A DNA stretch of 64,000 bases from an uncultured Hormoscilla sp. (GTDB taxonomy: Bacteria; Cyanobacteriota; Cyanobacteriia; Cyanobacteriales; Desertifilaceae), in the NCBI GenBank assembly GCA_963921275.4, contig OZ001293.3, positions 1,760,001-1,824,000 of the forward strand, written 5' to 3'. Below, in pieces: positions 39,001 to 42,000 of the stretch (position 1 is the first letter of the stretch; each line of letters opens with the position of its first letter). The position numbers were made by a program.

Positions 39001-42000
39001 TCCATTCGGGTCTTGGACGAAAGCAATCACCGTCGAACCATGCTTCATGGGACCCGGTTCCCGTACCACCTTACCACCACGAGCTTTAATCGTCTCGCAA
39101 GTGCCATAAATATCATCCACGCCAATGGCGATATGACCGTAACCATCCCCCAGGTCATACTTATCAGTATCCCAGTTATAGGTTAGCTCCAGCACCGTAT
39201 GGTCGGACTCGTCGCCATAACCAAGAAAGGCCAGAGTAAACTTGCCACCGGGATAGTCCTTCTGGCGTAGCAGCTTCATCCCCAGCACCTCGCAGTAGAA
39301 CTTGAGAGACTCTTCCAAGTTGCCCACCCGCAGCATCGTATGTAATAGTCGCATGCTCAATCCCAAATAAATTCCAAACATCAGCCAAGAGTTGTCCTGA
39401 TGACGTATTCTAACAAGCGACGGTCGGTCTGATGAGATAAGATAAATGGTTTTTACACCAGATACCGCAATTGAAGAGATTCGCGCCCGGGAGATTCTGG
39501 ACTCTCGCGGACGCCCGACAGTGGAAGCAGAAGTCGAACTCGCTAACGGGGCCCTGGGTGTGGCCCAGGTTCCCAGTGGGGCCTCCACTGGCACCTTTGA
39601 AGCCCACGAACTCCGGGATGGAGATGCTAACCGGTACTGTGGCAAAGGGGTGCTGGAGGCTGTGCGGAATATTAAGGAGAAAATCGCTCCCAAACTGTTG
39701 CAGTTAGATGCCCTCAACCAAGCTTTGGTAGATCGGGTGATGATCGATCGGGATGGTTCTGCCAATAAGGCCAACCTGGGGGCGAATGCGATCCTGGCAG
39801 TTTCTCTCGCCACGGCCAAGGCTAGTGCTGACGCCCTGGGCATTCCTTTATATCGCTATCTGGGGGGCCCCTTAGCCAACCTGCTGCCAGTGCCCTTGAT
39901 GAACCTGATCAACGGGGGGGCCCATGCTGCCAATAATGTCGATTTTCAGGAATTCATGATCGTGCCAGTGGGTGCGCCCACTTTTGCCGAGGCTTTGCGC
40001 TGGGGTGCGGAAATTTTTGCCTGCCTCAGCAAGGTGTTGGATGGTAAAGGTTTGCTTACTGGGGTTGGAGATGAAGGGGGTTTTGCCCCCAACCTGGGGT
40101 CAAATCAGGAGGCCCTAGATTTATTGGTAGCTGCGATCGAAAAGGCGGGCTATAAACCGGGGGAACAGGTGGCCCTGGCCCTGGATGTGGCAGCTAGCGA
40201 ATTCTATCAGGACGGTCAGTATGTCTATGATGGCAACGTGCGATTCGTTCCGGTATAAGCCAGTATGGTGAAAATCGGGTCTGGTTCCATTAGCCAGATA
40301 ACTCTGGTAATCATGGGGGTTAAATTCCCCTCCCCCAGGTGCGGGGGTGACACCGGTCCTCGGTGCTGCGGAGCCACATCACCGTGGTGCTAAGCGAGGA
40401 CTCAAATGAGGATAGCTGGCAGCCTAAGCTGGCAACTCCACTAGGAAAGAGGCTCATGGTCAGAACAAACAAATCTCCGTAAGTATCGTTACATAGAACC
40501 AGCGAAAAGGCTGATTGCGCTGGCCCAAAAGGGAAAGCAGTTCGCGTATCAATGCTGTGGCCTCATTGATATCGTACCCGCTCAGGACTGCCGGTATAGA
40601 GGAGAGACCTAAAAGCCTCGCGAAATGATACCAGGGAACGAAGTAACCCCTCGTGTGCTGTCCAATAGGACCAGTCAGATGTGAAGCGCAAGCCACGAGC
40701 GGGAAAGATGGCCCGAGAAGCTAATGCCTGGGCGGTGTCTTCCGCATGCTCTTGTCCTGAAGGACAAGAGCATGCGGAAGACGCCGGGTAATGCTCATGG
40801 ATATGCTGACGCGGGTCGGTGATATCAGGAAACTACTGGTATAAGTAACCTCAAAACGTCATAAACCCGTCCGCAACGTATAGCGCAAGCGAGTTGAGGA
40901 TTGAGGGATGTATAACTGGTAAAACGGACACGCAAATGGTGATCCTAAAGGTTTTCCAAAGCCACTCACCAACCAGGAAAGGGGCTAAATTGCAAGTAGT
41001 AAGGGCCAACGGCGAGTAATCCCTAGTAAGCCTACCCATGTCAAGGGCCTGGTACCCAGTAGCCGGATGCGATGAAAGTCGCACGTCCGGTTCCGAACGG
41101 GAGGGTTGGGAAGCGATTCTCAGCTCGACCCCTAATCCTCACTCGCCCCAGGACTTTATAGATTATATGGGTCAGTTAGTTGACCAATATCCCATTGTTT
41201 CCATTGAAGATGGTCTGCACGAAGAAGACTGGGACAGTTGGCAGTTGTTGACCGAAAAATTGGGCAGTCGCATCCAGTTGGTGGGGGATGACTTGTTCGT
41301 GACTAACCCCACCCGCTTACAGAAGGGTATAGACTTAAAAGCTGCCAATGCCATTTTGATTAAGCTGAATCAAATTGGTTCGATGACGGAAACCCTGGAA
41401 ACTGTAGGACTAGCTACTCGCAATGGTTTGCGTTCTGTAATTAGCCATCGTTCTGGGGAAACCGAAGATACCACGATCGCGGATTTAGCGGTAGCAACTC
41501 GTGCGGGTCAAATTAAGACAGGTTCTCTGTGCCGCAGCGAACGGATTGCCAAATATAATCGCCTGTTGCGGATCGAAGATGAACTGGGTCATTTGGCAGT
41601 CTATGCTGGGACTGTAGGGATGGGACCGCGCTAATAATTGTAGGGTGGGCATTGCCCACCTTCTGCGACCAGTAGTTGGCATTAACTTGAATTCACAGTA
41701 CAATAGTATTGTATTGATTATGAGCAACTTCCCCGATCCCAATTTAATTAGCGCCATGTCACTGGACTTGCACCTGATAAAGGCGACTTAACGAAAGCTG
41801 GACGGGCTTTTGAGAAACACGCACAACGCGCTTCTCAAATTTGGGGCAGTTTGCAGGGAGATGTTCAGATGAAAAATCAAACAGGTCAGGGTATTCTTGA
41901 GGAAATTATTAACTCACCAGATACTGAGTGGTCTCAGAGGCATCACGCTATGTTGAAGAAAAAAATCATTGAAGGCAAGCTGCCAGATGGACGAGGGGCT

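Follow-up and report, generated by a model that had tools for sequence, protein, structure and literature searches.

Does a sole enolase gene that is cut in two by 899 nt of additional sequence still yield an enzyme, or is it a dead gene? To answer this question for eno of an uncultured Hormoscilla sp. (assembly GCA_963921275.4), we analyzed a 64,000-nt window of contig OZ001293.3 (1,760,001 to 1,824,000, forward strand), to which all positions below refer unless a contig is named, and compared the genome (G000) with four congeners (G001, G002, G003 and G004). The inserted element is an exact sense-strand group II intron insertion, not a random break.

Structure of the interrupted enolase gene

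The first enolase exon occupies 39446–40237 on the + strand (264 codons, taken from the ORF list) and covers the whole Pfam Enolase_N domain (1–131 of 131) together with positions 3–119 of 296 of Enolase_C, and the second (41137–41634, +; 165 codons and a stop) covers Enolase_C 136–290 of 296 and is free of gaps against the congeners. Left unspliced, the frame of exon 1 extends six codons into the intron and meets a stop at 40258, according to the ORF list. When the exons were joined by a script, residues 1–429 aligned with G001, G002 and G003 without gaps and with 96.5–98.1% identity, and a 90-nt junction probe was collinear with the intron-less DNA of G001–G004. The boundaries of exons and intron (40238–41136, 899 nt) are thus exact, as the first-pass annotation had placed them, and two further claims of that annotation hold as well. 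PF00113 is found in the genome, which is 96.7% complete, in these two pieces only, so that eno is single copy; the domain is continuous in three of the four congeners and split at a different place in G004, where eno carries an independent, ORF-bearing sense intron at another site than in G000. All 136 of the 136 alignment columns conserved at 98% or more among up to 94 relatives are kept, the four private substitutions all fall at variable sites of the same alignment, and the exons, collinear with intron-less orthologues, contain no further break. The nearest named enolases in a scan of the genome collection outside the window's own genus belong to Nostocales and other cyanobacteria, with at most 85% identity.

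Anatomy of the eno intron

The element at 40238–41136 (+) is an ORF-less, IIB-like group II intron. Its RNA starts with GUGCG and ends with ...CUCGACCCCUAAU, which corresponds in the DNA to GTGCG (40238–40242) at the 5' end and ...CCCCTAAT at the 3' end; the terminal AU fits the AY rule of group II introns. The longest sense ORFs lying wholly inside it encode 41–42 aa, and it holds no reverse-transcriptase/maturase ORF. Domains V and VI (41058–41136, +) match RF00029 with 45 bits (gathering score 40), and the match reaches the last intron base. In the consensus fold, domain V (about 41061–41094, +) forms a 14-bp hairpin with an AGC start and a 2-nt bulge, and domain VI (about 41099–41132, +) shows a bulged GA with A41128 as the candidate branch point; this predicted branch A is the ninth base from the intron 3' end, one beyond the usual distance of 7–8 nt between the bulged A of domain VI and the 3' splice site. 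Against Rfam, domains I–IV gave a single match, group-II-D1D4-2, at a sub-threshold 21.6 bits (gathering score 36). The variable domain III/IV region contains a hairpin (40733–40786, +) with 26-nt arms of 96% complementarity, a stretch that is left unpaired in the family consensus structure and has only a sub-threshold miRNA-like Rfam match. Overall, the eno intron forms 205 of the 214 consensus pairs (95.8%), the family mean being 94.3%.

The guide loops of the intron fit the insertion site. Specifically, IBS2 (TCTATG, 40224–40229, +) forms six of six pairs with the EBS2 loop (CAUAGA, 40492–40497, +), which was assigned by covariation read against the sequence, while IBS1 (GGCAAC, 40232–40237, +) forms five of six pairs with EBS1 (GUGGCC, 40557–40562, +) in the loop of a 7-bp hairpin, the mismatch being at exon position −3. 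EBS3 (G40599, +) pairs with C at 41137, the first base of exon 2, and such an EBS3–IBS3 pair with the first 3'-exon base is a group IIB feature. In total, 11 of the 12 scored EBS–IBS positions are paired, compared with a mode of 10 in the genome and a main peak at 4–6 for shuffled flanks. Additionally, a twin of the intron, changed at two adjacent bases of 899, both outside the core, interrupts an IscA-family gene in the sense orientation, where the target site resembles that in eno. Because group II retromobility requires earlier forward splicing, the near-identical twin suggests that the eno intron sequence was splicing-competent very recently.

A large family of ORF-less introns

At least 363 paired ORF-less copies of this one family are present in the genome; the first-pass annotation had given 381 pairs and 71 sense frames, and our own census differs slightly, with 363 and 58. 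The 5' end reads GTGCG in 394 of 406 cases, and four tails occur, three of which (ATCC, GACT and GACC) end in CC or CU and not in AY. The introns of prfC, gltB, nrdJ and metH listed in the first-pass annotation all begin with GTGCGATTCGTT and end with ...TCGACCCC plus 4 nt, and long frames are regained on their excision. A consensus fold of 35 representatives, in line with the six-domain structure of group II introns, contains 217 pairs, 117 of them with compensatory changes, and its domain II to IV borders are tentative. In 317 copies, covariation identifies the exon stretch from −9 to −13 or −14 as the partner of EBS2 and reveals up to six pair types per EBS/IBS position, and in 92% of these copies the EBS3 column is complementary to exon position +1, with five pair types. 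The EBS–IBS score reaches 11–12 of 12 in seven of eight core-gene introns (mean 10.9, versus 9.8–10.2 elsewhere).

Among the 363 pairs, excision restores open frames at 58 sense and 48 antisense copies. Shifting the excision by 0 or ±3 nt gave 56–58 sense frames, and by ±1 or ±2 nt 9–15. The test, for which the earlier statement was that only the true 3' end restores frames, works modulo 3 only and restores antisense frames as well. Because of these 48 antisense frames, the test proves exact boundaries, not function, and the same 48 frames indicate that insertion also kills genes. Many other insertions lie in phase 1 and phase 2.

Orientation of copies in core and other genes

With gene classes assigned after the Pfam tables had been seen, a Pfam-based count in ordinary protein genes (enzyme, transport and signalling) gives 34 sense and 12 antisense copies (binomial p 0.0016), versus 13 sense and 18 antisense in mobile and repeat genes (Fisher p 0.008 against ordinary genes). 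In core genes the ratio is 7:0, comprising eno, prfC, gltB, nrdJ, metH, zwf and recJ. This independent count bears out the sense bias reported in the first-pass annotation. The hosts of sense introns thus include the sole enolase, RF3, ferredoxin-type glutamate synthase, B12-dependent ribonucleotide reductase, glucose-6-phosphate dehydrogenase and RecJ, whereas the antisense copies examined occupy paralogs and genes of a mobile or accessory kind; the one antisense copy in a PRK-family gene has hit a weak paralog, prk proper being intact. The joined frames of prfC (87+461 aa), zwf (348+165), gltB (489+1083) and recJ (73+522) add up to full length. For nrdJ, a PF02867 profile search of the genome returned no match, not even nrdJ itself, and is therefore uninformative on whether a second reductase exists. 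In Trichodesmium, a ribonucleotide reductase gene that holds both introns and an intein is known.

Two host genes are broken besides their intron, as had been noted before: the metH frame ends 406 codons past the intron, and the Bac_DnaA domain of dnaA is spread over two overlapping frames, which marks dnaA as frameshifted. Family-wide, 196 introns lie on the + strand and 167 on the − strand, with no replichore pattern and a weak GC skew; replication-fork targeting therefore does not set the orientation.

Age of the insertions

None of the four congeners carries any of the tested introns, which comprise those of eno, prfC, zwf, nrdJ and recJ as well as the twin in the IscA-family gene. The core-gene introns tested are therefore young, and the comparison dates the eno insertion to after the split from the sampled congeners. 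Since the introns are young, intact exons and a low pN/pS are to be expected even in freshly dead genes. The G000-private changes in eno, prfC, zwf and recJ comprise 34 synonymous and 16 non-synonymous ones (pN/pS 0.145), with no stops and no frameshifts; the value is higher than in G002 (0.036) and G004 (0.018) and near that in G003 (0.165).

Of the 24 sequencing runs listed, only X21, a sediment metatranscriptome (share 0.08), is recorded as RNA; we examined X1, X2, X3 and X5. X1–X3 yielded long multi-gene contigs that are genomic-DNA-like and carry the unspliced form of eno, and X5, a sponge metagenome, yielded a relative's intron-less eno allele.

Proposed mechanism and alternatives

Judged from their sequences, the core genes with sense introns are probably still functional through removal of the intron from RNA. 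A mobile ORF-less IIB-type intron would have reverse-spliced into the sense strand of the sole eno, between codons 264 and 265, at a site that matches the intron guide loops. The gene would be transcribed through the intron, and the ribozyme would most likely fold, perhaps aided by the reverse transcriptase/maturase of another intron of the genome, about 20 of which bear an intact ORF. The intron would then leave as a lariat, and the mRNA would encode a normal 429-residue enolase. The same may hold for the sense copies in prfC, gltB, nrdJ, zwf, recJ, the host gene of the twin and some 30 further ordinary genes, while dead genes would be marked by copies in antisense and by those in genes already under erosion, among them metH and dnaA. 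The sequence directly shows where the intron begins and ends, how it is built and how its guide loops pair, as well as the single copy, the intact exons, the orientation bias and the presence of intact maturase genes; splicing in vivo and help in trans we infer, and we regard the account as a whole, from mobile insertion to trans-aided splicing, in eno as in the other sense copies, as likely. The claim of the first-pass annotation that such genes are not pseudogenes stands in part: the exact sense-strand group II insertions and the sense bias speak for it, while functionality is a matter of probability, with young introns, 48 antisense frames and a broken metH and dnaA on the other side.

These same points could mean that the genes were freshly killed, namely that eno and other core genes received their sense introns recently, with splicing absent or too poor, as part of the erosion of a host-dependent cyanobacterium. 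All tested insertions are private to the species, the two-base difference from the twin points to a very recent event, the 48 antisense in-frame insertions show a lineage that tolerates intron-killed genes, metH and dnaA carry further breaks, and the EBS1–IBS1 pairing of eno contains its one mismatch. We nevertheless consider such a fresh kill unlikely. Enolase is single copy and is needed by the cell for the synthesis of PEP in central metabolism, the sense excess amounts to 7:0 in core and 34:12 in ordinary genes with the examined antisense copies confined to paralogs, mobile or accessory genes, the eno intron has kept every tested ribozyme feature, and a congener bears an independent sense intron in the same gene. 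The orientation bias itself might stem from the insertion route rather than from selection, through reverse splicing into abundant mRNA followed by reverse transcription and recombination, or through transcription-coupled targeting. Genes with sense copies do include the typically well-expressed eno, prfC and gltB, and orientation has no link to the replichore. But antisense copies account for 48 of the 106 restored frames and are common in other gene classes, which means that DNA-level insertion occurs in either orientation, and mobile-element genes are mostly hit in antisense (nine unique frames versus three), so we hold a route-driven bias to be a little less probable still than a fresh kill.

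Two further readings deserve very little weight. The halves of enolase could be translated separately and assemble without splicing, since both frames exist, exon 1 giving a 270-aa product and an ATG at 41038 within the intron opening a 198-aa frame into exon 2. The break, however, lies inside the TIM-barrel domain Enolase_C, between profile positions 119 and 136, and the argument would be of no use for the many phase-1 and phase-2 insertions elsewhere; a split enzyme is highly improbable. We find it harder yet to believe that a repeat was misplaced inside eno during assembly. Copies of the family abound in the genome, and contigs from short reads end within the intron, but contigs of three runs cross both junctions (exon 1 to 40266, and 41108 to exon 2) with no differences, although these runs may be the source of the assembly, and the boundaries are base-exact against four congeners.

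Relation to known intron systems

Trichodesmium and Thermosynechococcus provide precedents for this kind of system; what is new is the set of host genes. In Trichodesmium erythraeum, in vivo splicing has been shown for 17 group II introns of protein genes, 10 of which lack an ORF, with help from a trans-encoded factor demonstrated in E. coli, according to PMC4649490; for this system, Meng et al. 2005 is cited in PMC4649490 and PMC2882425. As in strain IMS101 of that species in Pfreundt and Hess (2015, PMC4649490), our cyanobacterium has sense introns, many of them ORF-less, in conserved protein genes, and may likewise depend on maturases encoded elsewhere. The Trichodesmium genome is described there as rich in pseudogenes too, so that each interrupted gene needs its own check. 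In contrast to the 17 introns with splicing established by experiment in that species, at least 363 ORF-less copies, 58 of them in sense and in frame, are known here from DNA alone, and the hosts (eno, prfC, gltB, zwf, recJ and the IscA family) differ from those given for Trichodesmium.

Thermosynechococcus elongatus carries 28 copies, 17 of them ORF-less, on about 1.3% of its genome, among them the CL/IIB1 introns TeI3 (ORF-less) and TeI4 (ORF-bearing), as stated by Mohr, Ghanem and Lambowitz (2010, PMC2882425). One lineage spread there through divergence of EBS specificity, with ORF-less introns beside ORF-bearing relatives and with twintrons, as here, where the copy number is more than 10 times larger than the one given in that source. 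Arthrospira platensis, likewise a filamentous cyanobacterium with an exceptional load, has 101 group II introns, the top count among 1,790 representative bacterial genomes in the survey of Miura et al. (2022, PMC8919778); the 363 paired copies of one family alone in our genome, which also has 75 GIIM matches, are about 3.6 times as many, a rough ratio because the counting methods differ.

We are inclined, though by no means firmly, to see in this cyanobacterium, and probably in its genus, a free-standing bacterial case of large-scale intron invasion, in which dozens of protein genes need the removal of ORF-less introns and a few trans-acting maturases form a shared apparatus for more than 300 introns. 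If so, core genes present in one copy, with roles in glycolysis, translation, nitrogen assimilation and dNTP synthesis, would be expressed only after intron removal, and the shared apparatus would correspond to an intermediate that has been proposed on the way from mobile group II introns to the systems of organelles or the spliceosome. Plastid group II introns, many of them ORF-less and in housekeeping genes with few shared maturases, are old, fixed and immobile; those described here, by contrast, are young, species-private and evidently still mobile. Provided that the introns splice, the genome would offer a natural system for studying how a cell tolerates hundreds of introns, how a small set of maturases can attend to so many ORF-less copies and how selection filters insertions by their orientation, three questions that bear on models of intron origin. 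Gene callers give such genes as two fragments, and metabolic reconstructions of these symbionts will consequently score core pathways wrongly as broken.

Possible sources of maturase

The genome contains 75 GIIM matches and 23 near-full-length IEP matches in open frames of 555–609 aa. A blastn comparison of eight ORF-less representatives with the flanks of these 23 IEP ORFs found no ORF-bearing parent or helper IEP of the ORF-less copies. Long matches beside IEP genes were considered as parents and rejected, since they are nested ORF-less copies, for example one that lies upstream of the IEP at C1:2408108 and is 99.8% identical over 835 nt. Within the eno intron, it is the 3'-terminal 120 nt alone that resemble an IEP-bearing intron, with 83% identity to one that has a 609-aa IEP and the same CUCGACCCCUAAU end.

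An ORF-less group II intron splits the enolase gene

The ORF list represents enolase by two + strand frames, of 270 aa (39446–40258) and 198 aa (41038–41634). The upstream frame carries residues 1–264, with Pfam matches to Enolase_N 1–131 and Enolase_C 3–119, while the downstream frame carries the last 165 residues (Enolase_C 136–290). Between them lies an 899-nt intron (40238–41136, +), which starts with GTGCG and ends with CUCGACCCCUAAU. The Rfam group II model RF00029 (domains V and VI) matches at 41058–41136 (+) with 45 bits against a gathering score of 40, terminating exactly at the final intron base; the Rfam models of domains I–IV gave only a sub-threshold match. 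Since the longest sense ORF wholly within the intron is at most 42 aa, the intron is ORF-less. PF00113 has no match elsewhere in the genome (7.03 Mb, 96.7% complete).

Joining the exons in silico yields a 429-residue enolase without gaps over residues 1–429 relative to the congeners, with identities of 98.1% (G002), 96.7% (G003), and 96.5% (G001). A 90-nt junction probe is collinear with intron-less DNA of all four congeners (G001–G004) at 92–95% identity. Enolase is continuous across the intron site in 78 of 80 loci of other species, the remaining two being truncated by contig ends, and the allele of a relative in X5, a sponge metagenome run, is intron-less too. Both exon–intron borders are crossed with zero differences by contigs of the public runs X1–X3, which are possibly the source runs of the assembly itself. 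The gap-free product and the collinear congener DNA show that the first-pass annotation, which placed an 899-nt intron between residues 264 and 265, had the boundaries exactly right. Together with the RF00029 match and the guide pairing described below, they establish that the split of this gene by a sense, ORF-less intron is real.

Structure of the intron family and its guide loops

Searching the genome with profiles of the family's 5′ and 3′ ends, we found 406 5′ ends (394 with GTGCG) and 407 3′ ends, which form 363 paired copies (median length, 869 nt). All copies carry a 4-nt tail after ...ACCCC, namely ATCC, GACT, GACC, or TAAT, and diverge in sequence beyond it. Genome-wide, three of these four subfamily tails (ATCC, GACT, and GACC) lack the canonical AY ending, and, counting back from the 3′ end, base nine is the bulged A of domain VI. 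A consensus fold built from 35 diverse copies contains 217 pairs, 117 of them with compensatory changes, and includes a 14-bp domain V hairpin with a 2-nt bulge and a domain VI with a bulged GA. The eno intron forms 205 of 214 consensus pairs (95.8%; family mean 94.3%). In its variable region, a hairpin with 26-nt arms (40733–40786) falls in a stretch unpaired in the consensus, and related contigs in public runs omit ~55 nt there.

The target motifs in the flanking exons differ by subfamily. Across 317 copies, three guide elements were located as columns of the intron alignment that covary with positions in the exons: EBS1 with −1 to −6 (76–94% pairing per position, six pair types at each), EBS2 with −9 to −13, and EBS3 with +1, where 92% of the copies form the pair. 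In the eno intron, EBS2 (CAUAGA, 40492–40497, +) pairs with UCUAUG at 6/6 positions, EBS1 (GUGGCC, 40557–40562, +) with GGCAAC at 5/6, with a mismatch at −3, and EBS3 (G, 40599, +) with C at 41137. This makes 11 pairs at the 12 scored positions, where copies across the genome most often reach 10 and shuffled flanks have their main peak at 4–6.

Recent mobility and insertion age

A twin of the eno intron lies at G000:C1:6094530-6095428 of the genome under study (L213:1001-1899) and differs at 2 of 899 bases, which are adjacent (intron positions 719–720) and outside the catalytic parts. Its host, entered on the sense strand, is a small Fe-S assembly gene of the IscA/HesB family, whose C-terminal fragment matches Fe-S_biosyn 67–110; the twin is not present in any of the four congeners. 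The motif ...TATGATGGC..C|C is common to the target sites of both copies. Because retromobility requires prior forward splicing and only two bases differ, the eno intron sequence was able to splice no more than two substitutions back.

All four congeners likewise lack the introns of eno, prfC, zwf, nrdJ, and recJ. Among 150 candidates scored per genome, RF00029 matches number 86–127 in G002, G003, and G004, 2 in G001, and 0–16 in the other genera (G001–G018 covered). Since G002–G004 are heavily loaded, yet lack the introns tested, the invasion is genus-wide with an uneven load, and each insertion by itself is young and private to the species. As the first-pass annotation had noted, one congener has a split PF00113 of its own: the G004 enolase is broken after residue 294, a different site. 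The insert there (L015 = G004:C14:8500-13500, about 957–3416, −) is a sense group II intron of ~2.46 kb encoding a 608-aa RT/maturase/HNH protein, and is a second, independent gain in this gene.

Taken together, eno, prfC, zwf, and recJ have 34 synonymous and 16 non-synonymous private substitutions (pN/pS 0.145; congener range 0.018–0.165), with no stops or frameshifts, and enolase retains the conserved residue in 136/136 columns whose conservation among relatives is at least 98%. These data fit functional genes; as the insertions are young, they are also compatible with very recent gene death.

Introns within reading frames genome-wide

We asked of each copy that precise excision leave at least 60 open codons on both sides. 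Frames were restored by 58 of 363 copies in sense and 48 of 363 in antisense, and ~29% of copies lie within reading frames; the filter missed the twin, whose C-terminal exon has only 47 codons. The first-pass annotation had counted 71 of 381 introns in sense open frames; the kind of result recurs, with a smaller sense count and the antisense cases added. Its statement that only the true 3′ end restores frames held modulo 3: shifts of ±1 or ±2 leave just 9–15 cases, and the family boundaries are therefore exact. On gene function, the frame test alone is uninformative.

Pfam scans covered the two flanks of each of the 101 distinct frames. Sense frames include eno, prfC (GTP_EFTU 2–62 and 68–186 on either side), gltB (489+1083 aa; GATase_2, then Glu_syn_central and onward), nrdJ (with an intein as well), zwf (G6PD_C 1–137 and 138–296), recJ, and metH, as well as class-III aminotransferase, MscS, ChrA, dihaem cytochrome c, PhyH, DUF3352, DUF928, alpha-2-macroglobulin, a type ISP restriction enzyme, and several signalling proteins. 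Among the antisense frames are those of at least nine distinct RT genes encoded by introns, of five DUF4347 paralogs interrupted at an identical profile position, and of SpoIIE, PNP_UDP_1, GAF, CheA, a PstS-like binding protein, SSF, EamA, Uma2, and a weak paralog in the PRK family (the genuine prk is intact elsewhere). Of 24 frames without a Pfam match (11 sense, 13 antisense), six lie opposite a frame with one and are spurious. Enzyme, transport, and signalling genes hold 34 sense versus 12 antisense introns (binomial p 0.0016). The split is 13 versus 18 in genes of mobile elements and repeat families (Fisher p 0.008 for the contrast) and 7 versus 0 in core genes; the classes were assigned after the Pfam tables had been seen, which weakens the test. 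No replichore pattern was seen in intron strand.

In one type of intron-encoded RT gene, an antisense ORF-less intron lies between the maturase (GIIM) and HNH domains (e.g., G000:C1:1148045-1150715); since this arrangement recurs in at least eight near-identical copies (L033, L092, L105, L079, and L071 among the loci), the composite seems to have multiplied as one unit. In the DUF4347-domain surface-protein paralogs (L098, L078, L073, L051, L048), the antisense intron falls at profile 69|73 in each, reflecting either duplication of an interrupted gene start or repeated insertion at one bottom-strand site.

Two genes named in the first-pass annotation as intron-containing, with the caveat that some such genes are dead, show further breaks. 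The metH frame terminates 406 codons past its intron, and the single Bac_DnaA domain is spread over two frames that overlap (profile 6–78 and 68–161; G000:C1:5734094-5734562), indicating a frameshift. Both genes are probably decaying.

Known systems and other introns in the window

Earlier reports describe 17 group II introns splicing in vivo in Trichodesmium erythraeum, 10 of them ORF-less, in protein genes and aided by a trans-encoded factor, with a caution about frequent pseudogenes in that genome (PMC4649490); 28 copies in Thermosynechococcus elongatus, 17 ORF-less, spread via EBS divergence (PMC2882425); and 101 in Arthrospira platensis, the maximum among the 1,790 representative bacterial genomes of one survey (PMC8919778). 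Full-text searches retrieved no paper on introns, group II or otherwise, in Hormoscilla, and a broader search surfaced, among the papers listed, no report of hundreds of group II introns per bacterial genome. The introns are a new, extreme case of an already known type, and they probably splice.

The genome has 75 GIIM matches and 23 near-full-length matches to intron-encoded RT/maturase proteins, in open frames of 555–609 aa. Within the window, further ORF-less family members lie at 7661–8531 (−), at 32176–33045 (−; in sense in a frame of 66 and 423 aa with no Pfam match), and at 62224–63145 (+; 922 nt, GACC tail), the last with an atypical domain V, as it has no RF00029 match at gathering score. 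A group II intron from a different lineage (15397–17189, −) is ORF-bearing: its 595-aa RT/maturase/HNH frame encodes a product that shares just 44% identity with the protein of the G004 eno intron, and the domain V/VI of this window intron (15397–15472, 57 bits) overlaps the ORF end.
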